Shown: positions 12,529 through 42,438 of the stretch, piece by piece
Layout: each line of letters opens with the position of its first letter
Numbering within the stretch: the first letter of the stretch is position 1
From: Candidatus Omnitrophota bacterium
Lineage (GTDB): Bacteria; Omnitrophota; Gorgyraeia; Gygaellales; Profunditerraquicolaceae
DNA: 64,000 bases
Direction: 5' to 3'
NCBI GenBank assembly: GCA_011620275.1
Contig: WOZK01000031.1
Coordinates: 23,479 to 87,478 of the forward strand
Program-made: the position numbers and the translations under genes
The notes under the pieces: model-generated
Databases searched by the model: none
Seen by the model: the letters and a program-made list of their open reading frames with translations, nothing else
Told to the model about the DNA's origin: nothing

Positions 12529-12546
12529 AACTCTATTCCCTCCGGG

Positions 12547-15200: not shown

Positions 15201-16468
15201 CTGGCGGCCTCCGCTTTGGCTTTCTTTATATATTGTACCAGCCTGCGGTTCGCCGGACATACATATGCGCACGCCCCGCATTCCAAACAATCGGCCAACC
15301 CGTGCCGTTTAGCTTCTTCCAACATCCCTTTTTCGGCCGCCGCCCCCAGCATACAAGGAAGCAACCCGGTGGAACAGACGCGCACGCATCTGCCGCAGCG
15401 TATACAGGCGCTCTCTTCCAGGATACGGCCGCTTTTCTCCCCCAGCACCAACACCCCGCTGGTGGTTTTGATCACCGGGACATCGATCCCGGCCTGGGTT
15501 ATGCCCATCATCGGCCCACCTATGATTATCCTACGCGGTTCTTCTTTAAGCGGACCGCAGAAGGAAATCAGCGCGGATATCGGCGTGCCTGTCCGGACCA
15601 GTAAGTTTGCCGGATTCGACAGGCAATCCCCGGTGACGGTAACCACTCTTTCATAAAGCGGCTTACCGAGAAAAACCGCTTCATAAGCGGCGAACACTGT
15701 GGCCACGTTCTGCACGACGGCGCCGGCTTCAAACGGCAGTTTGCCGCGCGGAACCTCTCTGCCCAGCACGCTTTTAATCAACTGTTTTTCCCCACCCTGG
15801 GGATAAAAAGACCTTAATTTCTTAACCCTCAGCGGACCGGAGGCTTTGGCCAGTAAAAGTTCAACCGCCCTGGGCTTATTGTCCTCAACGGCTATGCATA
15901 TATCCTCGGCCCCCAGTATGCGACCCAACAGCAACGCCCCTTTAATGATCTCGTCGCTTTTCTCCAGCATCAAGCGGTAATCGGAAGTCAGATACGGTTC
16001 GCACTCGGCGCCGTTAACGATCAAAGTCCTCACACGGACCGGAGGTTTAAGCTTGAGGAAAGAAGGAAAACCCGCGCCTCCCATACCTACCAGGCCGGCG
16101 TCGCGTATTATATCGAGAAGTTCCTCCGGTTGCAAAGAGTCCACGTCACGCGCTTCGCGCGCCCGGAAAGCGTAAGAATCAGGCAGCCGCGTCTCTATTA
16201 CCGCCGCGCTGCACCTGCCGAGCACGGGGTGCGCGCAGGTTTCGATTGAAGAAACCGTGCCGGTCACGGAAGAATGAACTGCCGCCGACGGCATGGCCCC
16301 GGCGGAGGCTATCCGCTGTCCGGTAATGACTTTATCGCCCGGCTTAACCTCAAGCAGGCCAAGCTTGCCTAAATGCTGGCAGAACGGGATGAACATCTTT
16401 TCCGGCGGGGGCAGGACCGTTATTTTCTTATCTTCGGTGGCTTCTTTGCGATGCTCTAATTTAACCAT
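15197..16468 (-). CDS. rnfC: Rnf complex subunit C (NADH-binding, two [4Fe-4S] clusters)
   Basis: The motif GMGGAGFPSFLK is present. Two ferredoxin motifs are present: CIRCGRCVRVCSTGLLP and CLECGACAYVCPANRRL. Confidence 0.85.
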   Translation of the reverse strand: MVKLEHRKEATEDKKITVLPPPEKMFIPFCQHLGKLGLLEVKPGDKVITGQRIASAGAMPSAAVHSSVTGTVSSIETCAHPVLGRCSAAVIETRLPDSYAFRAREARDVDSLQPEELLDIIRDAGLVGMGGAGFPSFLKLKPPVRVRTLIVNGAECEPYLTSDYRLMLEKSDEIIKGALLLGRILGAEDICIAVEDNKPRAVELLLAKASGPLRVKKLRSFYPQGGEKQLIKSVLGREVPRGKLPFEAGAVVQNVATVFAAYEAVFLGKPLYERVVTVTGDCLSNPANLLVRTGTPISALISFCGPLKEEPRRIIIGGPMMGITQAGIDVPVIKTTSGVLVLGEKSGRILEESACIRCGRCVRVCSTGLLPCMLGAAAEKGMLEEAKRHGLADCLECGACAYVCPANRRLVQYIKKAKAEAAR

Positions 16469-17718
16469 GCGGCCATTCTTTTGTAAAAGATATTCGCCAG
16501 CCCGGTCAGCGCGAAGGCGCAGCCGACAACGGAAATGATGAATACCTCCGGAAGCCTTTCGGCTATCTTACTGCTTAAAAGCATGAAAATAAGGAACCCC
16601 GCGTGCATGATTATTTCCATCGCGCTGAATACCTTGCCGCGCATCTGGCTGTCGCTGACTCTGTGTATTATAGTGTTGGAGGCGATCATGATAGGGGAGA
16701 TGCACAAACCCAGAAGCAGCGCCAGACTTGCCGCCACATTGAAAAAAGGATACCTCTGCAGCGTGAAGGCGAAAATTATCAATACGATCCCGACCGAAGC
16801 AAGGGAAATAAAGATCATTCTGTAATGCGATATTCTGGATCCGAAACGGCCATAGACCACCGAACCGAGAAAAAGACCCGCGCCCAGGAATACGATGAGG
16901 AAACCGATATCTTTGGTCGCAGAATGCAGAGTCTTCTGCACAAAGACTATCATCACCACGTAAAGAGCGCCCAGGGCCGCGGAAAGCGAAAAGATAAGCC
17001 CCACGGTGAAGCGTATATGCTTGTTTTTCAGGACGTATTTCCAGCTCTCTTTCAGTTCCTGCAGCACCGTCTTCTTAAAAATCTCCTCCATTTCCCTGAC
17101 GGGATGAGAAACCGCCTGCTCCCGCATTCTACTGCGGACCCCGGTGTAGATAAAGAAAATCAGGCCGGCGGAAAAAGCGAAACTAAGCGAATCTAGGAAA
17201 AAACCGCTCTCGGGACCGAGCCACTCCACCAAAAGCCCGCTTACGCCAAACCCGGCCACCGCGGCTATCATTCCTGTCATATTGGCGAGGGTATTGGCTA
17301 TCAGCAGCTGTTTTTTCTCCACGAGTTCAGGCAGTATCGCCATCTTGGCCGGGACAAAAAACCTGCCGATGCCGAAAATAACAAATATGACCGCATACAA
17401 GGGAAGTAAGTTGCTGTTGTGAAAGAAGAAAAGAGGGATTGTTAACACGAGGACCGCCCGCAGAAAATCGCATACGTACATCGTGCGGCGTTTGTCCCAG
17501 CGGTCAACGTAAACGCCTGCCAACGGCCCAACCACAAAAACCGGGAGGATCGTAAAGGACATTATTTTGGCGATCTGCATCGGGGAACCGGGGGCCTTGA
17601 GATATATCAACCCCAGTAAAGCCATCTGGTCCAGCCTATCTCCCAACTGTGAAACGATCTGGCCGAGCCAAAGCAGGAAGAAATTACGGTTTTTCAACAC
17701 CTGGGCGTATTCAGACAT
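16456..17718 (-). CDS. MFS transporter
   Basis: It has twelve predicted TM helices. The start was moved to the internal ATG at 17718 (MSEYAQVLKNRNFFLLWLGQIVSQLGDR) so that the gene does not overlap the tRNA. Confidence 0.65.
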   Translation of the reverse strand: MSEYAQVLKNRNFFLLWLGQIVSQLGDRLDQMALLGLIYLKAPGSPMQIAKIMSFTILPVFVVGPLAGVYVDRWDKRRTMYVCDFLRAVLVLTIPLFFFHNSNLLPLYAVIFVIFGIGRFFVPAKMAILPELVEKKQLLIANTLANMTGMIAAVAGFGVSGLLVEWLGPESGFFLDSLSFAFSAGLIFFIYTGVRSRMREQAVSHPVREMEEIFKKTVLQELKESWKYVLKNKHIRFTVGLIFSLSAALGALYVVMIVFVQKTLHSATKDIGFLIVFLGAGLFLGSVVYGRFGSRISHYRMIFISLASVGIVLIIFAFTLQRYPFFNVAASLALLLGLCISPIMIASNTIIHRVSDSQMRGKVFSAMEIIMHAGFLIFMLLSSKIAERLPEVFIISVVGCAFALTGLANIFYKRMAAWLN

Positions 17719-17811
17719 ATCCCGCTGTATAATATTATATATCCCCGGCGGCACCTCGGGTAAAGCCGGGAATCCTATTTGGGCTTTAACTTCCGCTTTC
17801 AGGGTTAAATA

Positions 17812-17887
17812 TGGAGCCGATGAGTGGATTTGAACCACCGGCCCGCGCTTTACGAAAGCGCTGCTCTACCAACTGAGCTACATCGGC
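17812..17887 (-). tRNA. tRNA-Thr (anticodon CGU) with encoded CCA
   Basis: The reverse complement is GCCGATGTAGCTCAGTTGGTAGAGCAGCGCTTTCGTAAAGCGCGGGCCGGTGGTTCAAATCCACTCATCGGCTCCA. The cloverleaf is recognisable: a 7-bp acceptor stem, a GCTC/GAGC D-stem, an anticodon loop TTCGTAA, and a GGTTCAAATCC T-loop. Confidence 0.8.
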
Positions 17888-21803: not shown

Positions 21804-22823
21804 TCAATCCAATACCTTTCTTATTATGCCTCCCCCGACAACTACATCTCCTCTGTAAATCACCGCCGATTGTCCTGGAGTAACCGCGAATTGGGGGAGA
21901 CGGAAAACAATTTTTAGCGTGTTGCCGGATGGCGTTATTTCGGCTGGCTGTTCCGTATGATTATACCGTATCTTCACGTTAAGGACAACCTTCTTTTTCA
22001 ACGGCTCGCGTGGAAAGCTCAGGTTGTTTACGATGAAAGCCGACGCCGAAACCTCCTGCCTCCCGCCCAGCACCACCCTGTTGCGCCGCGCGTCCACCTC
22101 TTTAACGTATAAAGGACGGCCGGAAGAAATACCCAGGCCCTGCCTTTGCCCGACGGTATAAAACGGCACTCCTTTATGACGCCCGAGAACTTTTCCCCCC
22201 GTATCGACGAATTCTCCGGGCAGGCAACCGAATCCCGGAACGGAGGCGAGGAAAGAACGGTAATCGCCGCCCGGGACAAAACATACGTCCTGGCTCTCCT
22301 TGCCGGAAGAAACGCTCAACCCCGCGGAGGAGACAAGCCGGCGCACTCCCTCCTTGGTATAACCGCCGAGCGGGAAAAGCGTGTTCTTGAGCGAATCCGG
22401 AGCAAGACTGTAGAGAAAATAACTCTGGTCTTTTTCTGAGTCGGCCGCTTTTTTTAGGCGGCCGTTTTCTATTTTCGCGTAATGCCCGGTGACGAAATAA
22501 TCCGGCCCAAGGGAAAGGGCCTTGACGCGCAGCAGTCCGAATTTGATGTAGCGGTTGCATCGCACGCAGGGATTGGGGGTCCGGCCCCTGGCGTATTCCG
22601 CGCAGAAGTTATCGATAACCTTGCGCTCGAACTCTTTTCCCAGACGGAATATCCGATGCTCTATGCCGATCTCTTCCGCCGCGCGCCTCGCCGCGCAGAT
22701 ATCCTCGTTCCCCGACAAAAGAGCGGTAATCCCAATTACCCGGAAACCGCGCGATTTAAGTAATAAAGCCGCTGCCGCGGAATCCACTCCCCCGCTTAAA
22801 GCGACCGCAGCCGTTTTTGACAT
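21804..22823 (-). CDS. mnmA: tRNA-specific 2-thiouridylase
   Basis: The PP-loop is ALSGGVDSAAAA. The catalytic Cys motif NPCVRCNRYIKFG is present. It is 339 aa. Confidence 0.85.
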   Translation of the reverse strand: MSKTAAVALSGGVDSAAAALLLKSRGFRVIGITALLSGNEDICAARRAAEEIGIEHRIFRLGKEFERKVIDNFCAEYARGRTPNPCVRCNRYIKFGLLRVKALSLGPDYFVTGHYAKIENGRLKKAADSEKDQSYFLYSLAPDSLKNTLFPLGGYTKEGVRRLVSSAGLSVSSGKESQDVCFVPGGDYRSFLASVPGFGCLPGEFVDTGGKVLGRHKGVPFYTVGQRQGLGISSGRPLYVKEVDARRNRVVLGGRQEVSASAFIVNNLSFPREPLKKKVVLNVKIRYNHTEQPAEITPSGNTLKIVFRLPQFAVTPGQSAVIYRGDVVVGGGIIRKVLD

Positions 22824-22960: not shown

Positions 22961-23722
22961 TTATATGCTGTAGCCGGTAAGTAAAAGGGTGTACCCGGCA
23001 GAAGACGTCCCTTTCAACTTTAAAGGTATCCTTTTTTCGTCCGCGGAGATCCATATCTCGAATTTCCGCGGTTCGCTCGTAAAATGGTAAGCCTTGAAAG
23101 TGCCGGCCGGGACCTTTACTTCTTCTATGGAATCCAGAGAAACGATGAAACTCTGCGTCGGGAGCTGAACGCGCATCCTCCATCCTTCTTTAAGACCGGG
23201 GATTGTCCTGACATAATAAGGCAGCAATACGGCGTTATGTATAGCCCTATCTTTCTTGATGACCTGTACGCTTCTGCTTTTCCCCTCTTCCCTTGTTATC
23301 TTAATAGAAAAGGCCGTCTGGTCATACTCTTCGGTTATCCTCTCTTTCTTCGGCCAGAAATCTATTATCCTTTCCACGCGCACCGGCAACAGGCTGCCGG
23401 GGAGACAATAAATAAGCTCATTATCCCTGAAACGGGCCAGTACAGTGCGGAAATTCACGACATGAACGGCGGTGCCGTTCAGTTCGGTAATATCCCTGTG
23501 CTCAAATTCAGCAGTCCCCACCGATAGTATGCCGAGTTTTACCTGATACAGGACCTTCTCCCCCACGTATTTTTTTATCGGGTCTTCCTGCGCAGGAGAA
23601 AATGCGGCGGTCTTTCCACCGCGGCCCGAGGGCCGGAAAACAACGGTTTTAAAAAACCAGCCCGCCGCCGCGGCGGCGAGAATTAAGCATAATATAATCC
23701 TGTATCGTGGCACCCGTATCAT
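22961..23722 (-). CDS. Hypothetical membrane-anchored or secreted protein (DUF3108-like)
   Basis: It has an N-terminal signal/anchor, IILCLILAAAAAGWFF. It is beta-rich and has no catalytic motifs. Confidence 0.4.
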   Translation of the reverse strand: MIRVPRYRIILCLILAAAAAGWFFKTVVFRPSGRGGKTAAFSPAQEDPIKKYVGEKVLYQVKLGILSVGTAEFEHRDITELNGTAVHVVNFRTVLARFRDNELIYCLPGSLLPVRVERIIDFWPKKERITEEYDQTAFSIKITREEGKSRSVQVIKKDRAIHNAVLLPYYVRTIPGLKEGWRMRVQLPTQSFIVSLDSIEEVKVPAGTFKAYHFTSEPRKFEIWISADEKRIPLKLKGTSSAGYTLLLTGYSI

Positions 23723-23768
23723 TTATCGTCTCGTTATCCCGGGAGGCCGAATAGGGCCCACCCAAGCT

Positions 23769-23866
23769 TTAAACCCGGGGTAATCCTTAGATAAAATAAG
23801 GACAAAACCACTCCGCGTATCCAAGGTTAATCCGGATTGAAAACCGGGGATTCCTGCGGTTTGATT
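23769..23866. repeat. Intergenic repeat family, copy B
   Basis: The proximal part reads TTTAAACCCGGGGTAATCCTTAGATAAAA. The distal part, GAAAACCGGGGATTCCTGCGGTTTGATT, is identical to copy D. Confidence 0.5.
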
Positions 23867-24839
23867 AACCGCGCTGCGGGAGTCCGCAATGTATCACATC
23901 CCCTGCCATTACTTTTTCCGTCAAGCCGGAATCATTCCTGACCAGCAGACCGCCGTCATCTTCTATATCTACCGCCTCGCCCTCGATACCCCCCCTGGGC
24001 AGGATTACTTTGACTCTTTTTCCCAGTGTGGAATTAAGCCCGCGCCATTTACCGATTATCAAAGCGTACTCACCGCGGCAGAATTCTTTATAATAGTTTT
24101 CCAGCCTGAAAAAGATCTCCTGAAGCAGGGCAACGCGGTCCACCTTCATCCTCGCCGCTTCAGCTATCGAGGCCGTGCCCGGAAGTAACTCGGCAGTTTC
24201 GTTGTTCACGTTCAAACCCACGCCGACCACCACGTAAGGCGCGCCGCCGGCACCGCTGCCGGCCTCGGTAAGAATACCCCCCGCCTTCCGGGCGTCCAGC
24301 AGGATATCGTTGGGCCATTTTATCCCGGTAACGACACCGGAAATGCTATGCACGGCTTCCGCAACGGCTACCGCCGCCAGCAAAGTAAGAAGGGAAAAAC
24401 GCCCCGTTGAAGAGGGGGGACGAAGCAGCAGGGAAAAATATATACCTTTCCCTGCAGGAGAGAACCAGTTCCTGCCGGCCCTGCCGCGGCCTGCGGACTG
24501 ACTCTCGGCGACGACCGCCGTCCCTTCCTGCGCGCCTTCGGCAGCCAGGCGTGCCGCGTCGTCCATGGTCGAAACGGTCTTGTCTAAATAAACTATGCGC
24601 CTGCCGATCTTGACCGTCGCGAGGTTCTTCTCTATCTCAGCCGGCATCAGACAATCCGGAATAAAAGTCATCTTATAGCCCAGATGCGGCACGGTTTCTA
24701 TCACGTAACCGTTGTCGCGCAGTCTACGCATCTCTTCCCACAACTTCTCCGCGCTGATTCCGAGCGCGAAGGTTAACTCCTCCTCCTGCATGAATCGCTC
24801 GCTCTCTTTAAGCAATGTGATTATCTTATCTCGGGGCAT
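23865..24839 (-). CDS. birA: Bifunctional biotin-protein ligase and biotin operon repressor (class II BirA)
   Basis: The start was moved to the internal ATG at 24839, giving the N-terminal wHTH MPRDKIITLLKESERFMQEEELTFALGIS. The ligase signature GRGRAGRNWFSP is present. The ORF-track extension begins with TTG. Confidence 0.75.
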   Translation of the reverse strand: MPRDKIITLLKESERFMQEEELTFALGISAEKLWEEMRRLRDNGYVIETVPHLGYKMTFIPDCLMPAEIEKNLATVKIGRRIVYLDKTVSTMDDAARLAAEGAQEGTAVVAESQSAGRGRAGRNWFSPAGKGIYFSLLLRPPSSTGRFSLLTLLAAVAVAEAVHSISGVVTGIKWPNDILLDARKAGGILTEAGSGAGGAPYVVVGVGLNVNNETAELLPGTASIAEAARMKVDRVALLQEIFFRLENYYKEFCRGEYALIIGKWRGLNSTLGKRVKVILPRGGIEGEAVDIEDDGGLLVRNDSGLTEKVMAGDVIHCGLPQRG

Positions 24840-24865
24840 TGTTTTGTTTCCGCAGGTTATAAAAC

Positions 24866-24952
24866 TCCCCGGGCAATCCTGAGATAAACCCTGGTAGTGA
24901 GCTGTCCAACTACTCAAAACAGGCGGCCCGGGGTAATCCTTGGCTATTCGGC
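24866..24952. repeat. Intergenic repeat family, copy C (two proximal-type units)
   Basis: It contains two proximal-type units: AATCCTGAGATAAACCCTGG and GGCCCGGGGTAATCCTTGG. Confidence 0.45.
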
Positions 24953-25046
24953 TGTCCGATCCTGTTGAAGGGACATTCAGTAATGCAAATCAGAGTCTGA
25001 AACCGGTCAATAATATCCGCCCGGCATTCAGGATCATGCGCCGCCG

Positions 25047-25454
25047 TTAAAAACGCACTTCCATCGCCTTGAACGGACAAATGCGCACACAGACCCCGCA
25101 GGCGATACATTTATCTTCGGAGAAAACGATCTCCCTGCTCTCCTTGTCCGGCAGTAAAGCCCCCGCCGGACAAAGAGGCACGCAGACACCGCAATCGGTG
25201 CATTTTTTCTCGTTTCTTACCACGTCCTGGCTCAAAGGCTGTATCTTCACCCCGCAGGACTTCAGATAATGCAACCCCTTCTCGAAAGCCGGCTCTTCAC
25301 CGCTCAACTCCAGCACCATCAGCCCTTCCTCATCCGGGGTCACGTAAGCCTTCAAGATGTTGAAATTAAGTTCGTAATCCTTGACCAGCTTGAAAACTAT
25401 CGGCTGTTCGACCAGTTTACGGGGGAAATGTAAAACCACTTTTCTGGAGATCAT
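25047..25454 (-). CDS. NIL-domain ferredoxin with 2x[4Fe-4S] (MA1822-type)
   Basis: The N-terminal NIL domain is LVKDYELNFNILKAYVTPDEEGLMVLEL. Two ferredoxin motifs follow: CTDCGVCVPLCP and CIACGVCVRICP. Confidence 0.75.
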   Translation of the reverse strand: MISRKVVLHFPRKLVEQPIVFKLVKDYELNFNILKAYVTPDEEGLMVLELSGEEPAFEKGLHYLKSCGVKIQPLSQDVVRNEKKCTDCGVCVPLCPAGALLPDKESREIVFSEDKCIACGVCVRICPFKAMEVRF

Positions 25455-25470
25455 CTTTCCGCTCCTTGCC

Positions 25471-26679
25471 TTACTCCTTTTTGTAAAGCCTCTCGTTGAG
25501 AGGTTTCACCTTGTAGCCGCTCTCGGCCCCCGGCAGCGCCGCAGAAGGCTCGGTGAGAAAGAATTCTCCTTCCTCGATCCTGGTCTTCAACAGCACGGCT
25601 ATCTTGCGCGCGCGCGCATAGCTGGAAAGGCTGCCTGTGGGAACGGTCTTACCGCGTAGTTTGATGTTCCCGGAACGCAACTCCGCGTAACTTACTTCAG
25701 CGATGATGCGGGATGACCTTTGCGGATAATCGCGGCCGTAATCTACCACCGGAGCGTATATCTCGGCATCGGTAACCGCCGCCCGCCTAACCACTTCCTC
25801 ATCAAAAACGGGGATGGGCACGCCGATGCCTATGGAAAGCGTCACCCCGTAACCCGCCATACTCGTGCCGACCAGCCATTCCGGGCTCATCTGTTTCAGG
25901 TCGCCGATAACCGCAAGCGTACCCGCGCCTCCCAGAGGGATCCCGTTCCTGCCGCGTTCGACGCAGGGGTTGTGCTGCGTCCCGTGCCAGGCTATGTAAC
26001 CGATCCCGCCTCCGAGAAAAATACGGGTGCCTATGCCTATGGTTCGGTAATAGGGGTCTTTCAGCAGAGGCGAAAGCTGCCCGGCGGAAGAATAATTGGC
26101 GTTGCCGAGCCGCGGTTTAAGCATCCCCATATAGGTAAAAACGGTCTTGCCGGAGAGGTTGACTGCAACATTATAATTCTGATAACAATTGCGCATATTG
26201 AAGAGAACCGCCTCGTTTAAATCCCTGATGTTAAGCAGTGTCTCCAATTTTCTCCGGGGATAGCAGTCGGTACCGTAAGCGCTGCATTCCAGACGGACGT
26301 CTTTGCCCGCTGCCAATTCCTGTATCACGTGCCCGCCGCCGTATTTGAATTCCCCGGGAAAAATCTTATTGCGGGGATCATCGTCCGGCACGGCGGTAGC
26401 CCCGAGGAAAACGTCCACGGCGCCAAAAGCGGCATAAACCGGCACGTCATTGACCGTGCAGCTGCCGCCCCCCAGCTTGATCCTCGGCTTGGAGTGACCG
26501 ATATTGAAATAAACCCCGCTGGAACACATGGGTCCGAAAGTGGCGGTGGTGACCACGTCCACCTCCCTGGCGACCTTCCTGACGCCTTTCTTAGCCACCA
26601 GGTCTATTATCTCCTCGGCAGTGACCACCACGGCGTCTCCCCTGCCGATCTTAGCGTTGATCTCTTTGATAGTCTTCAT
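25471..26679 (-). CDS. COG1900/DUF39 sulfur-incorporating homocysteine biosynthesis protein (MA1821-type)
   Basis: It is 402 aa and begins MKTIKEINAKIGRGDAVVVTAEEI, as in archaeal COG1900 proteins. It is followed 16 bp later by the NIL-ferredoxin, a known gene pairing. Confidence 0.65.
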   Translation of the reverse strand: MKTIKEINAKIGRGDAVVVTAEEIIDLVAKKGVRKVAREVDVVTTATFGPMCSSGVYFNIGHSKPRIKLGGGSCTVNDVPVYAAFGAVDVFLGATAVPDDDPRNKIFPGEFKYGGGHVIQELAAGKDVRLECSAYGTDCYPRRKLETLLNIRDLNEAVLFNMRNCYQNYNVAVNLSGKTVFTYMGMLKPRLGNANYSSAGQLSPLLKDPYYRTIGIGTRIFLGGGIGYIAWHGTQHNPCVERGRNGIPLGGAGTLAVIGDLKQMSPEWLVGTSMAGYGVTLSIGIGVPIPVFDEEVVRRAAVTDAEIYAPVVDYGRDYPQRSSRIIAEVSYAELRSGNIKLRGKTVPTGSLSSYARARKIAVLLKTRIEEGEFFLTEPSAALPGAESGYKVKPLNERLYKKE

Positions 26680-26699
26680 TTCCCCTCACTTTGGCCCGT

Positions 26700-26921
26700 T
26701 CAAACCGAGACCACCTCTTTTACTTCCGGTACTTCCTTTTTCAGGATGCGCTCTATGCCCATTTTAAGTGTAAACTGGCTCATAGCGCAGCATCCGCAGC
26801 TGCCGGTGAGTTTCACTTTCACCACTCCGTCTTCTCCGACATCCACCAGATCCACGCTCCCGCCGTCTGCCGCCAGCATCGGCCTGATCTTTTCCAGCAC
26901 TGCCTCAACCTTTTCTCTCAT
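26700..26921 (-). CDS. NifU-like (Nfu C-terminal domain) Fe-S cluster carrier
   Basis: It is 73 aa. The motif LTGSCGCCAMSQFTL matches the Nfu CxxC scaffold motif. Confidence 0.7.
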   Translation of the reverse strand: MREKVEAVLEKIRPMLAADGGSVDLVDVGEDGVVKVKLTGSCGCCAMSQFTLKMGIERILKKEVPEVKEVVSV

Positions 26922-26997
26922 CTAATCCTCCCGTCTGCCGTACTCCATTGACGTGCGATCTTGTTTTGAACGGCCTTGCCCGGTCCGCGAAGATGCG

Positions 26998-27897
26998 TCA
27001 GGACAAATATCTCTCCCCCGTATCCGGAAGGACCGTAACTACCGTCTTTCCCCTGCCGAGCTTCTCAGCCGCCCTCAACGCGGCCCATACCGCGGCCCCC
27101 GCGGAAATCCCGGCAAAGATGCCTTCGCGCGCAGACAATTCAAGACGGCAGGACAAAGCGGCCTCGTCGGTAACCGTAATTACTTCGTCTATCAAAGAGA
27201 CATCCAGCACAGGAGGAATAAACCCCGCTCCTATACCCTGTATCTTATGCGCCCCGGCTTTACCTCCGGAAAGAACCGGGCTGGCCGCGGGTTCGACCGC
27301 GATAACCTTCACGCGGGGGTTCTTCGCCTTCAACGCCGCGCCGACGCCTGTCAACGTCCCGCCTGTGCCGACCCCGCAGACAAAGGCGTCGATCCTTCCT
27401 GGGGTATCGCGCAATATCTCCACCGCCGTTGTCCTGCGGTGGGCTTCGGGATTGGCCGGGTTGCTGAACTGCCTGATGGAATAACCTTTCTTGACGGAAC
27501 GGCCTATTTCCCCGGCTTTATCGATCGCGGCGCGCATGCCGCCGGCGACGGGCGTGAGCACGACTTCCGCCCCGTAACTGCCCAGTATTTCGCAACGCTG
27601 ACGGCTCATATTTTCCGGCATGACTATAATACATTTGTAGCCGCGCAAGGCGGAAAGCATAGCGAGACCTATCCCGGTATTGCCGCTGGTAGGCTCGATT
27701 ATGGTATAGCCCGGTTTCAGCTGCCCGCTGCGCTCCGCTTCATTGACAATATTGAGGCAAATGCGGTCTTTTATACTGCCTCCGGGGTTTCCCCCTTCTA
27801 TCTTTACGAAGACGTTCGCGCCGCGCCGCTCGGGTAGCGAATTCAATTTTACCAGGGGAGTATTCCCAATCAGGGCAGAAACATCTTTAGTGAACAT
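26998..27897 (-). CDS. cysK: Cysteine synthase (O-acetylserine sulfhydrylase), PLP-dependent
   Basis: The motifs GNTPLVKLN, the PLP-Lys region, IEPTSGNTGIGLAM and GVGTGGTLTG are present. It is 299 aa. Confidence 0.8.
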   Translation of the reverse strand: MFTKDVSALIGNTPLVKLNSLPERRGANVFVKIEGGNPGGSIKDRICLNIVNEAERSGQLKPGYTIIEPTSGNTGIGLAMLSALRGYKCIIVMPENMSRQRCEILGSYGAEVVLTPVAGGMRAAIDKAGEIGRSVKKGYSIRQFSNPANPEAHRRTTAVEILRDTPGRIDAFVCGVGTGGTLTGVGAALKAKNPRVKVIAVEPAASPVLSGGKAGAHKIQGIGAGFIPPVLDVSLIDEVITVTDEAALSCRLELSAREGIFAGISAGAAVWAALRAAEKLGRGKTVVTVLPDTGERYLS

Positions 27898-27906
27898 CGG
27901 CGTATT

Positions 27907-28356
27907 TTATATCTGATAGACCATCTGTTCTTTATCTTTACGGTTGAGACTCTCCAGCAGGTCGGAAAAGGTGACGCCGTCGATTATGCGCATAGTGGCG
28001 GCGGAGACCCTCTGCCAGACGTCCCGGAAAACGCACTTATATATATCCCGGCACCCTTTATATCCGTCCTCAACGCAGGCGATCGGCTCAACCGGAGAAG
28101 CGATGAAACGCACAACCTGCCCCAGGGATATCTTCGACGGCGGCCTTGCGAGGAGATAACCTCCTACTTTGCCCCGGCGGCTCTCGACAAAACCGCCTTT
28201 TTTCAATTCCAGCAGCACTTGCTCAAGAAACTTGATGGGAATATCCAGCCGGCCGGCCATGTGCTGGATCCTCACCGGAACCGGCTTGTCATAATAGTGG
28301 ATCGCCAGATCAAGTATGGCTTTAAGCGCGTAATCGCCTTTATATGTTATTCTCAT
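27907..28356 (-). CDS. Rrf2-family transcriptional regulator (IscR/CymR-like, three Cys)
   Basis: The start was moved to the ATG at 28356. The N-terminal HTH begins MRITYKGDYALKAILDLA. The conserved motifs GYLLARPP and CxxxxxC...C (CVEDGYKGC...C) are present. Confidence 0.75.
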   Translation of the reverse strand: MRITYKGDYALKAILDLAIHYYDKPVPVRIQHMAGRLDIPIKFLEQVLLELKKGGFVESRRGKVGGYLLARPPSKISLGQVVRFIASPVEPIACVEDGYKGCRDIYKCVFRDVWQRVSAATMRIIDGVTFSDLLESLNRKDKEQMVYQI

Positions 28357-28359
28357 GGC

Positions 28360-28376
28360 TATAATCCTGATTATAA
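28360..28376. promoter_or_regulatory. AT-rich palindrome TATAATCCTGATTATA between the -10 element and the Rrf2 start codon (candidate Rrf2 operator)
   Basis: It has 6-bp inverted arms. Its position over the transcription start and RBS region is typical of autoregulatory Rrf2 sites. Confidence 0.35.
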
Positions 28377-28382
28377 TAGTAG

Positions 28383-28411
28383 AGTATACCAAAATAATGC
28401 CTTTTTGTCAA
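28383..28411 (-). promoter_or_regulatory. Sigma70-type promoter of the Rrf2-sulfur operon (TTGACA, 17-nt spacer, TATACT)
   Basis: The minus-strand sense reads TTGACAaaaaggcattattttggTATACT. The -35 element lies inside an 8-bp inverted repeat, AATGCCTT / AAGGCATT (28395-28426). Confidence 0.45.
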
Positions 28412-28441
28412 CCTTATTAAGGCATTAGCCTGAAACGAAAC

Positions 28442-29347
28442 TTACAAAGAAAGCAGATATCTGGCGGCGGAAAGCGCGGCTTTTGCCCCGTCTCCGGCGG
28501 CAATAATGATTTGTTTTTCCGGGACATCGGTAACGTCGCCGGCGGCGAACAGTCCTGGGACGTCGGTTCCGTTGGAACAATCGACCTTAATCTCCCCTTT
28601 TCCGTTCCTGGAGGCGATGGCGGCGAATTCGGAATTAGGGACAAGCCCTATCTCCACGAAAACCCCGCTGACCGGCAGTATCGATTCTTTACCCTGCGCC
28701 GAGAACCGTATATCTTCCACGAAACGGCCGCCTCTAACCTCTATTACCGAGGCATTCTTATAAACCTCCACATTGCCGGCGGCCGAAAGCCTGTCTATCA
28801 GGATCGTGTCGGCCGTGAAGCTCCCGGAAGATTCCAGCACATATACCCTGGAGGCTATGCGCGACATCTGTAGAGCCGCGTCCAGCGCCGAGTTGCCGCC
28901 GCCGATGACCGCGACGTTCCGGCCGGCGAACAAAGGCCCGTCGCAGACCGCGCAATAGGTAAGCCCCCTGCCGAGAAATTCCTTTTCCCCCTTAACTCCC
29001 AGCAGGCGCGAACGTTTCCCCGTCGCAACGATCACCGCCGAGGCGCTATATGTATCTCTTTCTCCGGAGACCCTGAACCGCCTGCCGTCCCGCGTAAGGG
29101 ATAAAGCGGTCTCGGGCTGCACCAGTTTGATACTGAATATCTTCAGATGCTCTTCGAATCTTGCGGTCAACTCCGGCCCGCTAACCACCTGACATCCGGT
29201 GTAATTCTCGATGCGTCCGCTCCAAGCCGCCTGTCCGCCGATGTCGCGGCTGATCATCATGAAATCCAGTCCCTTCCTAGCGGCATAGATGGCGGCCGTA
29301 ACTCCCGCCGGCCCTCCTCCTATTATCAAAAGATCCGCCTGTTGCAT
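28442..29347 (-). CDS. trxB: Thioredoxin-disulfide reductase
   Basis: The FAD motif is LLIIGGGPAGVTAAIYAARKG. The redox-active centre is CAVCDG. The NADPH motif is GGGNSALDAAL. It is 301 aa. Confidence 0.75.
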   Translation of the reverse strand: MQQADLLIIGGGPAGVTAAIYAARKGLDFMMISRDIGGQAAWSGRIENYTGCQVVSGPELTARFEEHLKIFSIKLVQPETALSLTRDGRRFRVSGERDTYSASAVIVATGKRSRLLGVKGEKEFLGRGLTYCAVCDGPLFAGRNVAVIGGGNSALDAALQMSRIASRVYVLESSGSFTADTILIDRLSAAGNVEVYKNASVIEVRGGRFVEDIRFSAQGKESILPVSGVFVEIGLVPNSEFAAIASRNGKGEIKVDCSNGTDVPGLFAAGDVTDVPEKQIIIAAGDGAKAALSAARYLLSL

Positions 29348-29367
29348 CTCGCTTCCCCCGCGTCCTT

Positions 29368-29604
29368 TTAAACCAGCCCCAGCGCCTGTTTTACGCGTTC
29401 GCGGTCGAATCCTACAATAAGCTCTCCTTCGATGTCGACGACCGGCACGCCCATCTGGCCGGTCCTGTCGACGATTTCATCCGCCGCAGCGCGGTCAACG
29501 GAAACGTCGATATCCTCGAAGACAACGTTGCTTTCCTTAAGGAACTGTTTCAGGCGGATACAGTAAGGACATGTGGGAGTGCTGTAAACCTTTACATTCT
29601 TCAT
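29368..29604 (-). CDS. Glutaredoxin-like protein (CPYC)
   Basis: It is 78 aa. The motif YSTPTCPYCIRLKQFL is present on a thioredoxin fold. Confidence 0.65.
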   Translation of the reverse strand: MKNVKVYSTPTCPYCIRLKQFLKESNVVFEDIDVSVDRAAADEIVDRTGQMGVPVVDIEGELIVGFDRERVKQALGLV

Positions 29605-29641
29605 ATACGCCTCCTTTACCGGGACCGGGCGGCCTCGCCTG

Positions 29642-30106
29642 TCAAGTCTTAAGAACGTCCGGTGTCAAATCCATAATACTTGCAACGTTCAGCTTAATCA
29701 TATATTCGGGTTCCGGGAGCAGGGCTTCGGGATGAAAAGGATGCCCTTTGCGGCCGCCGAGGTTGGTTATCAATCTTTGCGCCAGCCTGGCGGTTATTCT
29801 GTTCTCCCATAATCTCAAGACCTCTGCCGGCAGCCGTTCTTTCAGAATTATCTCCGCCTCCCCTTTTAGGCAATACCCCTTGAATCCGTGTTCTTCGACG
29901 GCAGTTACGCTGAACCTGCCACTGCGCAGTATATTGCCGTAAGTGCGTTTCTTATAAAGATCCAGCAGGTATATCTCCCCCGCGGGAGCGACTATATCCA
30001 CCACGCCTTTACAAGAGGAATGCGGATAACCGTCCGCGTCTATGGAACAGGCTACGACAAAACTCTGCGCGAGCAAAAAAGAAGAAACTTTTTCCGGGAT
30101 AATCAT
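29642..30106 (-). CDS. PNPOx-like FMN-binding split-barrel protein
   Basis: The start was set to the ATG at 30106 (MIIPEKVSSFLLAQSFVVACSIDADGYPHSS). The upstream part of the ORF-track frame overlaps the rubredoxin gene and is regarded as non-coding. Confidence 0.5.
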   Translation of the reverse strand: MIIPEKVSSFLLAQSFVVACSIDADGYPHSSCKGVVDIVAPAGEIYLLDLYKKRTYGNILRSGRFSVTAVEEHGFKGYCLKGEAEIILKERLPAEVLRLWENRITARLAQRLITNLGGRKGHPFHPEALLPEPEYMIKLNVASIMDLTPDVLKT

Positions 30107-30113
30107 AAGCGGG

Positions 30114-30272
30114 CTAAATTTTCTCGAACATATCTTTCCCGACACCGCATTCTGGGCAAACCCAGGCATCCGACAAAGCCTCAAACGCCGTCCCCGGAGC
30201 GATCCCGGCTGAAGGATCCCCCTGCTGAGGATCATATATATATCCGCAAACTGTACAACGGTATTTCTGCAT
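30114..30272 (-). CDS. rub: Rubredoxin (52 aa), absent from the ORF track
   Basis: Hand translation of the minus strand gives [52 protein letters not shown]. Both CxxCG knuckles are present, along with the conserved YIYDP and DxWxCPxCG segments. It lies directly upstream of the PNPOx-like gene and downstream of the flavodiiron protein gene. Confidence 0.8.
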
Positions 30273-30414
30273 AATAACCTCCTTTGCGCCGCAAATAATT
30301 CGGCGTTCCGCGGTCTGCTCATGATTTCAAAACTGAGCGGTATTTGTATTATCCGCGCGCCAAGGGCGGCGGTCCAGTTTCGGCTCGTGATTTTACCTTA
30401 GCCTAAAGGAGAGG

Positions 30415-30446
30415 CGTGTGTTCACCTGTGTGAAAGTATTCACTAC
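30415..30446. promoter_or_regulatory. Composite palindromic operator candidate (TTCAC-N4-GTGAA-N4-TTCAC; includes TGTGA-N6-TCAC)
   Basis: The sequence is gtgTGTTCACctgTGTGAAagtaTTCACtac. It lies between the flavodiiron protein stop and the rubredoxin start. It resembles Crp/Fnr (HcpR) or Rex half-site architecture. Confidence 0.3.
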
Positions 30447-31643
30447 TCACTTGTGCGCTTCGATAAGTCTGCGCCCGAAATCACGGCCGAATTCGCGGCA
30501 GGCCTCTAAATCAACCGGAGAAGGGCAATATTGAACGGAGATTCCGCGGCAAACCGGAGGTATACCGGCTCCGGACAACACCGCTTCCATCTCATTCACC
30601 GCCCCGCCAGCCCAGCCGAAAGAGCCGAAAACCGCACTAAGACGGTTCCGCGGTTTTAATCCTTTGAGCAAATGAAGGAATCCGGCGAGATCCGGCAGCA
30701 TGCCGTTGTCATGGGTGGATGAACCAAAAAGATATCCTCCGGCCTCAAGCATCCTGCCTATTATTTCCGTGCGGTCGGCCCGGTTTATGTCGAACACCTC
30801 GGCCTCTACCCCCGCCTCCAACAACCCGGAGTAAATCGCGCCCGCCATCTTTTCAGTGCCTCCCCACATGCTTTCATAGACGATCACGGCCCTGGGGACT
30901 GAAGAATTCAGCGCCCAACGGGAGTAGCTCTCGATTATCGCGCCGGGATCGTTACGCCATATCATACCGTGGCTGGGAGCGATCATGGAGACCGACAGGC
31001 CGCTTTCCCGCAGTTCCGCGATCTTTCCGGATACAAGCCGGCTCAAAGGCCAGAGGATATTGGCGTAGTATTTGGCCGCCTCTCGCATAAGCGTCCCCTG
31101 CTCGGCCTCGTCGGCGAACCTTCTGCAGTGGGCGAGGTGCTGCCCGAAAGCGTCGTTGGAAAATAGTATTTCCTTCCCTTCCAGATAAGTGAACATACTG
31201 TCCGGCCAATGCAGCATGGGGGCTTCAATAAAAACGAGCGATCTCTTCCCCAGGGCAAGTCTGTCGCCGGTCTTTACGGTCTGAAAAGGCCAATCCGCGT
31301 AATAATGCCTCGATAGACCCTCGCGGCATTTTGCCGTCCCTAACAGCTTTGCCCGTGGGGCCGCGCGCATCACTTCCGGCAAGGCTCCCGAATGGTCTGT
31401 TTCCACGTGGTTCGCCACGACATAATCTATCTTCTCCGGTGGTACGATCGCGGAGATATTCTCCAGCAAATCCCGTGAAAAAGGTCCGAATACGGTATCT
31501 ATAAGAGTGATCTTGTCATCTATTATAAGGTAGGCATTATACGTAGTTCCCGAGGAAGTATTGAAAGTGTGACCGTGAAAATTCCTGATGTTCCAGTCCA
31601 CGGCACCGACCCAGAATATATCTTTGCTTATTTCACAAAACAC
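30447..31643 (-). CDS. fprA: Flavodiiron protein (rubredoxin:oxygen/NO oxidoreductase; metallo-beta-lactamase plus flavodoxin domains)
   Basis: It has a GTG start preceded by an AGGAGGAG SD sequence. The di-iron ligand motif reads ANHVETDHSGALP (HxExDH). The C-terminal flavodoxin-like domain includes AVIVYESMWGGTEKMA. Confidence 0.8.
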   Translation of the reverse strand: MFCEISKDIFWVGAVDWNIRNFHGHTFNTSSGTTYNAYLIIDDKITLIDTVFGPFSRDLLENISAIVPPEKIDYVVANHVETDHSGALPEVMRAAPRAKLLGTAKCREGLSRHYYADWPFQTVKTGDRLALGKRSLVFIEAPMLHWPDSMFTYLEGKEILFSNDAFGQHLAHCRRFADEAEQGTLMREAAKYYANILWPLSRLVSGKIAELRESGLSVSMIAPSHGMIWRNDPGAIIESYSRWALNSSVPRAVIVYESMWGGTEKMAGAIYSGLLEAGVEAEVFDINRADRTEIIGRMLEAGGYLFGSSTHDNGMLPDLAGFLHLLKGLKPRNRLSAVFGSFGWAGGAVNEMEAVLSGAGIPPVCRGISVQYCPSPVDLEACREFGRDFGRRLIEAHK

Positions 31644-34725: not shown

Positions 34726-35829
34726 CTACAGTCCCGCTTTCAGTGTGCTGTTCTCCAGCTCTTCTATCTCCGCCTTCAGCTTATCCGGCAAACCCAGCAC
34801 CCCGCCATCCATGAATCCACGCACGATCAGCGACTGCGCCTCCCGAGGGGAGAACCCGCGGCAGCGCAGGTATTCGATTTCATCCTTGTTGATCCTGCCG
34901 ATGGCGGCTTCATGCGAAAGGTCCACGTCGCGGTAATCGGTCTCCATCTCCGGTATCGCGTAAATGCTGCCCTGTTCCGGCAGTATCAGGCCCCGGCATT
35001 CCAGGTGACCTTTGACGTTGCGGGCGGAGGCCTTGATATGCCCGCGGGCCACCACCTTTCCGCCCAGACTGACCGCTCTCGAGATGATCTCCGCCTGCGT
35101 CTCCTCGGCCTGCAGCGCGACGCGGGATCCGACGTCCTGCAGGGAACCGGGATGCGAAAGTATTATGGAATTAAAACTCGCCCGCGCTTTTCTGCCGTGC
35201 AAAAGAGCCGTGGGATACATAGTGATGTCGCGCACCGGTTTCAGACAGACGTAATTCGAGATAAACACCGCCTCTTCCCCGACGGAAGTGATGCTCACCG
35301 GTTTCACGCTGACGCTTTCCTGCCAGGAATGGATCATGGTAAAATTAAGATATGCCCCGTTGTGCACGAAAAATTCCGATATACCCAGATGCATGCCTTC
35401 GGACGCGGAGTGGGAGGCGGAACACCCCGTTATTATGTAGGCCTTGGCACCCTCTTCCACTACGATCAGGTTGTGCACCTTCTGCCTGAACCCCTGCTGT
35501 TTCAGAAAAAGGCAGGCCTGCACCGGGAATTCTATTTTATGACCGCGCTTGACCCGGATGAAATATCCGCCTTCAGTCTCTCTGTCGAAATCCCTGCCCG
35601 TGGAACGGAAATTAGCGCCGAAATAACCGGCGGCCTCCGGATATGTTTCCAAGGCTTCCTTGATCTCCATTATCTCCAGGCCGTCTGAAAGGGACCGGGC
35701 AAACATCAGCCCGGAGTCCTGCTGCAGGAAGCTTCCCGAGCGGTCCTTCTCGGAGAAATCCATCCCCGTGGAGACGATGGTATCACGGTCGCGACCCTCC
35801 AGATTATCTTGCCGATTGTGCTCTGTCAT
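34726..35829 (-). CDS. sufB: SufB/SufD-family Fe-S cluster assembly protein
   Basis: A C-terminal beta-helix match to SufB/D is present, GKVVARGHIKASARNVKGHLECRGLIL. The start is uncertain; the ATG at 35829 overlaps sufC by 26 bp. Confidence 0.65.
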   Translation of the reverse strand: MTEHNRQDNLEGRDRDTIVSTGMDFSEKDRSGSFLQQDSGLMFARSLSDGLEIMEIKEALETYPEAAGYFGANFRSTGRDFDRETEGGYFIRVKRGHKIEFPVQACLFLKQQGFRQKVHNLIVVEEGAKAYIITGCSASHSASEGMHLGISEFFVHNGAYLNFTMIHSWQESVSVKPVSITSVGEEAVFISNYVCLKPVRDITMYPTALLHGRKARASFNSIILSHPGSLQDVGSRVALQAEETQAEIISRAVSLGGKVVARGHIKASARNVKGHLECRGLILPEQGSIYAIPEMETDYRDVDLSHEAAIGRINKDEIEYLRCRGFSPREAQSLIVRGFMDGGVLGLPDKLKAEIEELENSTLKAGL

Positions 35830-36535
35830 CGCATTCCATACATTTGTCGTATCCGCGTTCCCTGATGTTTTCGAATATCTCTTTCGGCCTGCCCACGCAC
35901 CACATCTTCCCATCTATCATCACGCAGCCTTTCCCGGCGTTTATATAATCCAGGATATAACCGGTATGGGTTATGATCAGGGCCGACTTGCCTTCTTCTT
36001 TGAGATATCCATCCAGTACTTTTCCCATGACCGAAATGTTCTCCAGATCCACGCCCGACTCCGGCTCGTCGAGGAGGAGCAGATCGGGATCCTGCAGGAT
36101 CAGTTGAAAAAGTTCCGAACGTTTCATCTCTCCTCCGGAAAACCCCATATTTATGTCCCTGGATAGATGCGAAGAAAGAGAAAGCCTTTCCGACATCTCC
36201 TTTATCAACCCGGCATTGCCGTTCAGACGGCCGGCGACCTGGGCAAGCTTGACGCCCCTGACCTGCGGAGGGTGCTGATACATTAACCCGAGACCGAGCT
36301 TCACTCTTTCTTCCACGGGAAGCCCGTCTATCCTGGTCTCTCCCAGAAAGATTTCGCCGGAGATCACTTTGTACCCCTCGAATCCCATTATCGCCTTAAG
36401 CAGCGTGCTCTTGCCGCTGCCGTTCGGCCCAAACAGCACAACCACTTCCCCCTTGCGTATATGCATATTCACGCCCTGAAGGATGAGATGCCCGGACACT
36501 TCCACGCTTATATCTTTGACTTCAAGCATCATCAT
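35804..36535 (-). CDS. sufC: Fe-S cluster assembly ATPase SufC
   Basis: The start is at the ATGATGATG at 36535. Walker A is GPNGSGKST. The ABC signature is FSGGEMKRSEL. Walker B is LLLLDEPESGVD. Confidence 0.8.
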   Translation of the reverse strand: MMMLEVKDISVEVSGHLILQGVNMHIRKGEVVVLFGPNGSGKSTLLKAIMGFEGYKVISGEIFLGETRIDGLPVEERVKLGLGLMYQHPPQVRGVKLAQVAGRLNGNAGLIKEMSERLSLSSHLSRDINMGFSGGEMKRSELFQLILQDPDLLLLDEPESGVDLENISVMGKVLDGYLKEEGKSALIITHTGYILDYINAGKGCVMIDGKMWCVGRPKEIFENIRERGYDKCMECDDRAQSAR

Positions 36536-36671
36536 GATTTCCCTTTGTATGACCGGCTCGCCGGCCCGTTCTATTCTACCAGTAAAGGAACTCCTTAGTA
36601 AACTATTTTCTTGAGAGAAACCTCCCGGTAGAAGCTGCATTCCTGGGCGGCAGCCGAAGGTGCGCTCCCGG

Positions 36672-40565: not shown

Positions 40566-40580
40566 GGTCAGCGACGGACC

Positions 40581-41288: not shown

Positions 41289-41330
41289 TTTTCCTCCTTG
41301 AAGTTTTTATCCCGGCGGCGAAACACAGAA

Positions 41331-42356: not shown

Positions 42357-42438
42357 TTCCTACGGCCCTCTTTGCAAAACACGCACAAATAATACCCCAT
42401 TTTCTGAAATAAGTTCGGTAACGGGCCCGCCGAAACGG

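Follow-up and report, generated by a model that had tools for sequence, protein, structure and literature searches.

How might an uncultivated bacterium of the Omnitrophota control the assimilation of sulfide into cysteine and homocysteine? The question is raised by five minus-strand open reading frames (ORFs) at positions 25047–28426 of a 64-kb stretch of DNA from a Candidatus Omnitrophota bacterium. This stretch is referred to as the window, and all statements on the absence of genes from it cover these 64 kb only. In the order of transcription, the ORFs code for an Rrf2-family regulator, the O-acetylserine sulfhydrylase CysK, an Nfu-type iron–sulfur (Fe-S) carrier, a COG1900/HcyBio (DUF39) protein, and a ferredoxin that combines a NIL domain with two [4Fe-4S] motifs. 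Since the Omnitrophota are uncultivated, regulation in this phylum can be inferred only from sequence, and the locus provides an unusually clean regulon, made up of a single promoter, a single 31-bp operator, and a single regulator. With a probability of roughly 60%, we regard it as an autoregulated sulfide-assimilation operon, in which the Rrf2 protein would act as repressor on the operator and the enzymes would synthesize cysteine and homocysteine. The enzymes themselves are known, and public databases already list their relatives under the respective names. The novelty lies in an operon architecture shared across the phylum, in the conserved operator with its regulon, and in a regulator that appears to be a hybrid of CymR and IscR.

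The five genes and the homocysteine module

The identities and the order of the five genes had been proposed in an earlier note on this DNA, and both agree with the results of profile searches; the gaps of 9, 76, 20, and 16 bp between successive genes given there were read off the sequence unchanged. The first gene (27907..28356, minus strand) codes for a regulator of 149 amino acids counted from an ATG, which matched PF02082 (113.7 bits, E = 9e-33), exceeded the cut-off of TIGR00738 (107 bits, cut-off 73), and conformed to the winged-helix fold of the family. A mechanically compiled ORF list had started this gene at a TTG at position 28392; the ATG was chosen because all orthologues begin at MRITYKGDYALK and because the TTG lies upstream of the −10 hexamer. 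The cysK gene (26998..27897, minus strand) begins 9 bp past the stop codon of the regulator gene, and its product scored 415.5 bits against the O-acetylserine sulfhydrylase A model TIGR01139 (cut-off 351). CysK carries the TSGNT loop and the QFxNPANP motif (here QFSNPANP), which are the sites that bind either the substrate or the carboxylate of a docking tail, and its closest solved chains are the CysK proteins of Geobacillus, mycobacteria, and Staphylococcus aureus. The nfu gene (26700..26921, minus strand) codes for a protein of 73 amino acids that corresponds to the C-terminal domain of NifU, covers PF01106 completely (95.9 bits, model positions 1–67 of 67), and has its CxxC in the motif GSCGCC. 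It is followed by the COG1900 gene (25471..26679, minus strand; 402 amino acids) and, 16 bp further downstream, by the ferredoxin gene (25047..25454, minus strand; 135 amino acids). No convincing candidate for an intrinsic terminator that would define the end of the operon was found 3′ of the ferredoxin gene.

The last two genes had been assigned to the homocysteine module of methanogens, and the profile searches bear this out. The COG1900 protein matched PF01837 over the full length of the model (495.4 bits, E = 1e-148, positions 1–349 of 349) and has no CBS domains, and the ferredoxin subunit contains a NIL domain (PF09383) at residues 6–71 and, with matches to Fer4, two CxxCxxCxxxCP motifs. 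In Methanosarcina acetivorans the equivalent pair MA1821/MA1822 (COG1900a and NIL-ferredoxin) constitutes L-ASST, the L-aspartate-semialdehyde sulfurtransferase. MA1821 has two near-universal cysteines, Cys54 and Cys131, of which Cys54 is essential. The NIL domain of this enzyme has been linked to methionine feedback, and CBS domains have been described for the methanogen enzymes. In Desulfovibrio, homocysteine synthesis requires the DUF39 protein, the NIL/ferredoxin protein, and COG2122, homoserine is no intermediate, and the DUF39 protein Dde_3007 lacks a CBS domain. In the set of 121 COG1900 sequences, all of which are at least ~70% identical, Cys52 (in TFGPMCSSG) and Cys139 were invariant. 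The pair with the NIL-ferredoxin was kept at 63 of 94 COG1900 loci, many of the remaining loci being truncated. The COG1900 protein is 98% identical to a protein of the metagenome-assembled genome (MAG) of Ca. Undivivens industriae (JAAYZR01; locus L002, whose proteins are 92–98% identical over the whole block) and 68–75% identical to dozens of proteins from MAGs labeled Ca. Omnitrophota. Many relatives, among them ones at 73–98% identity, already bear the name “homocysteine biosynthesis protein” or “L-aspartate semialdehyde sulfurtransferase”. By every sequence criterion applied, the pair thus appears to match the module, and the COG1900 protein fits the bacterial L-ASST type. In the operon proposed here, CysK would form cysteine from O-acetylserine and sulfide, and the COG1900a protein together with the ferredoxin would reductively form homocysteine from aspartate semialdehyde and sulfide.

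The COG1900 family also includes the coenzyme M synthase MMP16/ComF, and L-ASST may have overlapping activities. The pair could accordingly thiolate another aldehyde, like this paralog, with methionine being made by a different route, which would fit the metY genes that share a locus with COG1900 in three relatives and would make a homocysteine route via COG1900 redundant. Such a function is very improbable. The COG1900 protein scored only 110 bits against the MMP16/ComF model TIGR03287 (cut-off 364), and no Fer4 match, and hence no inserted ferredoxin domain, was found within its 402 amino acids; judged by its sequence, it is not of the coenzyme M synthase subtype (COG1900d). Its partner has a methionine-binding NIL domain, and close homologs exist in the Dehalococcoidia, where Dehalococcoides ethenogenes grows in minimal medium with a genome-inferred DUF39 pathway (DET0921:DET0919). 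Furthermore, no metA, metX, or metY homolog was found in the window. The three relatives that carry metY together with COG1900 and the NIL-ferredoxin (L032, L053, L070) led us to discard mutual exclusivity of metY and COG1900 as a sign of functional replacement. For the same reason, and contrary to the earlier note, the presence of a canonical sulfhydrylase would not speak against L-ASST. A search by sequence for a solved COG1900 structure found none.

Synteny was analyzed by tblastn with the window proteins on 80 genome loci. The arrangement Rrf2-cysK-(DUF169)-(nfu)-COG1900 was found in 29 of these, all of the Omnitrophota type although some records bear other taxon labels, and 15 loci had the exact five-gene order; the remaining loci of the set were Chloroflexota loci or truncated contigs. 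In most Omnitrophota loci, two additional genes lie between the ferredoxin gene and birA, one for LarE (TIGR00268, 306–336 bits), which belongs to the family of ATP-dependent sacrificial sulfur transferases, and one for NifS (TIGR03402, 573 bits) (e.g., after the NIL-ferredoxin gene at 7593–9595 of L016 and 7576–8457 of L010). Both larE and nifS are missing at the operon studied here and in the whole window. The Chloroflexota loci contain only COG1900 and the NIL-ferredoxin; in 21 of them, the pair is succeeded by the gene of a PRK04334/UPF0280 protein, which probably represents COG2122 and thus the third DUF39 pathway gene. A tblastn search with this Chloroflexota protein retrieved nothing from the window (best E = 0.63) or from the Omnitrophota loci. 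The bacterial DUF39 homocysteine pathway thus occurs in at least two genomic versions, one with COG2122 (Chloroflexota, Desulfovibrio) and one with Nfu, to which LarE and NifS may be added (Omnitrophota). The two versions are relevant to the question of how the still poorly understood COG1900 enzyme is supplied with sulfur and clusters. A DUF169 (COG2043) gene was observed near cysK in six loci, usually between cysK and nfu.

The Nfu protein accompanies COG1900 in 61 of the 94 loci and was not seen in metY-only operons, which are few and short. It would probably supply [4Fe-4S] clusters to the ferredoxin subunit and thereby mature it, and may do the same for the regulator.

Promoter, operator candidate, and regulon

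Transcription of the operon would start from a strong sigma-70 promoter upstream of the regulator gene (TTGACA-17-TATACT, 28411..28383, minus strand), with a predicted start site near 28376. The near-consensus promoter described in the earlier note was recovered as the best match within 7 kb, with 11 of 12 positions agreeing with the consensus, and it is conserved in orthologues. The −35 hexamer TTGACA (28406..28411, minus strand) is kept as cTTGACAa in ~25 orthologous promoters, and the −10 hexamer TATACT (28383..28388, minus strand) with its TGn extension is invariant among them.

For phylogenetic footprinting, upstream regions of 140 bp were aligned from ~28 orthologous Rrf2 genes with protein products of 54–66% identity. 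A conserved block, cTTGACAa-N17-TATACTCTACTA-N5-ATAGAGATTATAG, stands out between flanks that cannot be aligned, and its 31-bp element holds an information content near that of coding sequence. In the window, the element reads gTATACTCTACTA-N5-ATcAGgATTATAG (28359..28389, minus strand) and overlaps the −10 hexamer, and relatives have ATAGAGATTATAG as right half. The consensus is an imperfect palindrome of 29 bp with dyad symmetry at 10 of 14 pairs. Its right half may resemble a CymR-box consensus (ATMGGAATTW), a likeness that is given no weight here. A position weight matrix derived from the sites of 26 orthologues gave a score of 34.8 at 28359–28389, which was the sole match of at least 18 in the window, and exactly one match per related locus, each located just before the Rrf2 gene. 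This element is the candidate operator. It overlaps the −10 hexamer and the first ~20 transcribed bases, so that a dimer of the Rrf2 repressor bound to it would block RNA polymerase and repress its own operon.

The earlier note had sought the Rrf2 sites in two inverted repeats, and both exist. One is a 9-bp repeat, TAATGCCTT/AAGGCATTA, with the −35 hexamer in its loop (arms 28427–28419 and 28403–28395, minus strand), and the other is the palindrome TATAATC-AG-GATTATA (28360..28375, minus strand), whose AGGA is probably the ribosome-binding site. When the mononucleotides of the 85-bp spacer were shuffled, arms of at least 8 bp occurred in 4%, arms of at least 7 bp in 14%, and two separate repeats of at least 7 bp in 0.3% of cases. 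The pair thus exceeds chance, and neither repeat is compelling singly. The −35 repeat was rejected as an operator, since it is confined to three near-identical Undivivens-type sequences (L001–L003, the lineage of the window) and missing from ~25 orthologous promoters; it is a weak candidate for a terminator hairpin of the upstream gene (fold z-score −0.6). The palindrome does overlap the conserved element, within its right half, but is itself restricted to the same lineage, in which TCAGG replaces TAGAG of the right half and thereby creates the palindrome. This change probably also brings the AGGA to the right distance from the ATG, which follows 3 nt past the element. The search upstream of orthologues proposed in the earlier note thus led to a revised operator, TATACTCTACTA-N5-ATAGAGATTATAG, that overlaps the −10 hexamer.

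An RNA leader or riboswitch was also considered for the conserved element and rejected. The element can form no RNA hairpin because its left arm is made up of −10 sequence and the bases upstream of it, and is not transcribed. In the lineage of the window, moreover, one arm has changed without compensation in the other. A search of 23500–30500 against Rfam gave no match at E ≤ 1, and the intergenic folds were no better than shuffles (z = −0.08, +1.35, and −0.6).

Public metagenome contigs were scanned for CTCTACTA-N5-ATAGAGATTAT, and 80 loci were read. In ~53 of them an Rrf2 gene lies 6–47 bp downstream of the element and is followed by cysK-nfu-COG1900 and further genes; at five of these loci, metY follows instead, either with cysK or without it. 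In six others, the full promoter and operator occur without Rrf2. At one of these (L131, and similarly L133, L146, L095, and L107), the element precedes a DUF2292-DUF3034-metY-cysK-metX-metW operon that also includes genes of cystathionine enzymes, and at L106 it precedes cysH, a PiT-type permease gene, cysK, and siroheme genes. Based on these loci, the 31-bp element appears to mark sulfur-assimilation operons in general, and this favors a CymR-like rather than an IscR-like role of the regulator.

A second class of matches was a more perfect palindrome, AATCTCTA...TAGAGATT, which occurs without the promoter before unrelated genes in soil contigs. In L097, L113, L148, and L168, from soil and other metagenome contigs, the palindrome AATCTCTACTAtgtcaATAGAGATTAT stands without TTGACA/TATACT 15–51 bp upstream of genes for secreted proteins of ~839 amino acids and also of other genes. 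These palindromes probably belong to the system of a different regulator.

The Rrf2 regulator and its predicted inputs

The best solved relative of the regulator is IscR of Thermincola potens (4CIC). Cys94, Cys102, and Cys108 align with Cys92, Cys98, and Cys104 of IscR, have the spacing C-x7-C-x5-C, and are invariant in 25 diverse homologs down to 35% identity. Asp8 is conserved in at least 95% of 27 orthologues; in NsrR, the cluster ligand set consists of Asp8 and three cysteines. The first predicted input of the repressor would thus be an Fe-S cluster on Cys94, Cys102, Cys108, and possibly Asp8, which could report cluster, oxygen, or sulfide status. The earlier note had viewed the locus as a sulfide- or Fe-S-sensing unit for cysteine and methionine biosynthesis. 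This remains reasonable, but it is incomplete, as the operator was misplaced and a second conserved feature of the regulator, its C-terminal tail, was overlooked.

The regulator ends in ...QMVYQI, and the codons of the Tyr-Gln-Ile tail occupy 27910..27918 (minus strand). Tyr147 and Ile149 are conserved in at least 95% of the 27 orthologues, although the preceding linker of 12 residues is not, and 48 of 50 complete metagenomic Rrf2 orthologues end in YxI. In S. aureus, the C-terminal pentapeptide YMFYI of CymR inserts into the active site of CysK according to a preprint reporting crystallography and surface plasmon resonance. The carboxylate of the terminal isoleucine fills the substrate site, and this isoleucine is conserved in CysE and CymR (same preprint). 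The CymR profile model aligns as far as the last residues of tail-bearing proteins, whereas its alignment to a tail-less protein ends 10 positions early. Of the 150 cluster representatives (at 50% identity) nearest to the regulator, 92 have a [YFW]xI end and 93 the three-cysteine motif. This suggests that the CysK-docking tail known from CymR of Firmicutes is widespread among Rrf2 proteins. Its co-occurrence with Fe-S ligand cysteines in 52 of the 92 blurs the textbook division of Rrf2 proteins into a cluster-sensing and a thiol- or CysK-dependent type.

The distribution of the tail follows that of cysK. Tail-bearing distant relatives adjoin cysK (L086, L088), with P0141 heading Rrf2-cysK-metY-metA-cysE and P0133 heading Rrf2-metY-cysK. 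Tail-less ones adjoin ThiF-JAB-ThiS and not cysK (L089/L090), with P0134 heading an Rrf2-ThiF-JAB-x-ThiS operon without cysK. At L034, the sole genome locus of the Omnitrophota with no cysK in the operon, the tail is missing as well. From this sequence evidence, the chance that the tail of the regulator docks in CysK is about even. If it does, the tail would provide the second input, entering the active site of CysK as described for CymR. At low O-acetylserine levels, tail-bound CysK would stabilize repression; under sulfide shortage, O-acetylserine would accumulate and compete the tail out, and the operon would be derepressed.

A separate observation concerns the operator-controlled metY-cysK operons without Rrf2 (L131, L095, L107, L133, L146). 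Their first gene (3015–3206 in L131) codes for a small protein with a DUF2292 domain and weak similarity to OscA, which ended in ...E(E/Q)GGGI in all five translated loci. We take this end to resemble the GDGI tail of Escherichia coli CysE, and by this analogy the protein may be another small CysK-docking protein.

The three cysteines and the relationship to T. potens IscR would also be explained by control of the pure IscR type, with an Rrf2 protein that senses only Fe-S status and a tail without regulatory role. The locus would then serve mainly Fe-S biogenesis or sulfur mobilization by nfu (and by larE and nifS in relatives), with cysK and L-ASST as passengers. The slightly higher score of the IscR model (93.8 vs. 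85.0 bits for CymR), the addition of NifS and LarE in most Omnitrophota loci, and the Rrf2-iscS-iscU-trmU cluster of Clostridium perfringens, which according to the literature is induced by cysteine limitation, agree with this. Such control is nevertheless unlikely. Among the operons headed by the operator are those of the types cysH-permease-cysK and metY-cysK-metX-metW, whose function is sulfur assimilation and not Fe-S assembly, and the matrix scan of the window found no operator copy near its SUF Fe-S assembly genes (SufB/D-like and SufC-like ABC ATPase, 34726–36640, minus strand). Moreover, the tail is conserved well beyond the linker and tracks with neighboring cysK genes, His107 of IscR is replaced by arginine, and the score falls under the IscR cut-off.

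The opposite simplification, pure CymR-type control by a cluster-free repressor that acts only through its complex with CysK, is more unlikely still. It would account for the tail, the adjacent cysK, and the operator before sulfur-assimilation operons, and the CymR proteins characterized in the literature carry no Fe-S clusters. The cysteines would then have to be structural or act as thiol-redox sensors, but they are invariant in the 25 homologs, their spacing is typical of cluster-binding Rrf2 proteins, Asp8 is conserved to at least 95%, and the score of the regulator is far under the CymR cut-off.

Several observations weigh against the proposed autoregulated operon as a whole or in its parts. 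The operator candidate of the window departs from the consensus at two highly conserved positions of the right half (TAGAG to TCAGG), and its score of 34.8 is among the lowest of the sites before orthologous Rrf2 genes (others 33.6–50.8, mostly 40–51). COG2122, which Desulfovibrio vulgaris needs for the pathway, was not found in the window. Neither was a serine acetyltransferase gene (cysE), and a source of O-acetylserine is thus not seen there. Nfu cannot be obligatory for L-ASST because the COG1900 loci of Chloroflexota lack it. The fourth ligand of IscR, His107, corresponds to arginine in the regulator, and the regulator missed the cut-offs of both the CymR model (NF047409, 85.0 vs. 195 bits) and the IscR model (TIGR02010, 93.8 vs. 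207.6 bits); it is therefore regarded as a hybrid variant and as a member of neither family. Finally, the association of the tail with cysK rests on few independent cases, among which L034 could represent a single deletion.

The sequences themselves show the identities of the genes, the promoter, the conserved operator and gene order, the conserved cysteine, aspartate, and tail residues, and the recurrence of the operator ahead of other sulfur-assimilation operons. What we infer from them is that the Rrf2 protein binds DNA, which type of cluster it holds, that its tail docks in CysK, in which direction it regulates, and what Nfu does. It is conceivable, if rather doubtful, that the regulator represents a new class of Rrf2 repressors with two inputs, Fe-S and O-acetylserine/sulfide, which governs a phylum-wide sulfur-assimilation regulon in the Omnitrophota and their relatives. 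If so, the supply of clusters or sulfur to L-ASST in this lineage would fall not to COG2122 but to Nfu, joined in most relatives by LarE and NifS.

Genomic surroundings and comparison with known systems

In the Omnitrophota loci, glutaredoxin-like and thioredoxin reductase (TrxR)-like genes are often found upstream of the operon and birA downstream. The window has the upstream genes in the order shared by many of these loci (glutaredoxin-like, TrxR-like, Rrf2), with the glutaredoxin-like gene at 29368..29604 and the TrxR-like flavoprotein gene at 28442..29347 (both minus strand); the two probably form a separate transcript. Further upstream are a rubredoxin gene (30114–30272, minus strand; 52 amino acids, PF00301, 85 bits), which overlaps the 5′ end of a PNPOx-like ORF and is missing from the gene calls of the corresponding contig in public data, and a gene for a flavodiiron protein (30447..31643, minus strand). 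Together, the rubredoxin, flavodiiron, PNPOx-like, glutaredoxin-like, and TrxR-like genes make up an oxygen- and redox-stress cluster directly upstream of the Rrf2 operon. Downstream, past birA and a DUF3108 gene, the third gene is mnmA/trmU (21804–22823, minus strand), which codes for the tRNA 2-thiouridine synthase; its position is reminiscent of two clusters known from Firmicutes, Rrf2-iscS-iscU-trmU and cymR-nifS-mnmA.

Among the more distant genes of the window, a P-type cation ATPase (36672–39377) is encoded upstream of the SufBD/SufC genes. A run of four genes (39543–43797, minus strand) codes for a TrpB-like pyridoxal phosphate enzyme (PRK12391, 693 bits), a PP-loop protein that resembles ThiI and carries an NFACT-R_2 domain, a protein of 235 amino acids for which no family match was obtained, and an AmmeMemoRadiSam radical SAM enzyme; it may be another cluster for sulfur transfer or modification. 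A complete Rnf-type complex (RnfB, A, E, G, D, and C-like; 11740–17838, minus strand) is consistent with an anaerobic, ferredoxin-based energy metabolism. A fragment of a DDE transposase (7360–7860, plus strand; 166 amino acids, PF13751), which comprises only the C-terminal part of the domain, is probably the remnant of a decayed insertion sequence.

Compared with the L-ASST systems of M. acetivorans (MA1821/MA1822) and Desulfovibrio (Dde_3007, DvMF_1464/0262/0044), the locus shares a full-length COG1900a/HcyBio protein and an adjacent NIL-2x[4Fe-4S] ferredoxin, and its two invariant cysteines, Cys52 and Cys139, may correspond to Cys54 and Cys131 of MA1821. Like Dde_3007, the COG1900 protein of the window has no CBS domains. 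In contrast to the Desulfovibrio system, COG2122/UPF0280 was not found at the locus or elsewhere in the window, and in contrast to both systems, the pair is embedded in an Rrf2-cysK-nfu operon, to which larE and nifS have been added in most relatives.

With NsrR, in which these four residues hold a [4Fe-4S] cluster, the regulator shares Asp8 and the three cysteines in the same order, but it scored only 44 bits against an NsrR cut-off of 182, and the operon contains no genes for NO detoxification. With IscR of E. coli and T. potens (4CIC), it has in common the three cysteines at ligand positions. As in IscR and the clostridial Cpe1786 cluster, it would be the autoregulated first gene of an operon with Fe-S carrier or desulfurase genes (nfu, and nifS in relatives), and, as in the Rrf2-iscS-iscU-trmU cluster of Cpe1786, mnmA/trmU is located nearby downstream. 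It differs from IscR by the replacement of His107 by arginine, the score under the cut-off, the predicted CysK-docking tail, and an operator-based regulon that would comprise cysH, cysK, metY, and metX and not isc or suf. A further parallel is the CymR-CysK system of Bacillus subtilis and S. aureus, in which an Rrf2 repressor with an aromatic-x-Ile tail (YMFYI in S. aureus, MVYQI here) controls operons of cysteine and sulfur assimilation together with a canonical CysK partner, as sequence comparison suggests for the regulator described here. Unlike CymR, the latter has three invariant ligand cysteines and Asp8, which are lacking in characterized CymR proteins, reaches 85 versus 195 bits in the CymR model, and would be co-transcribed with cysK and autoregulated, acting on an operator whose consensus was derived here.

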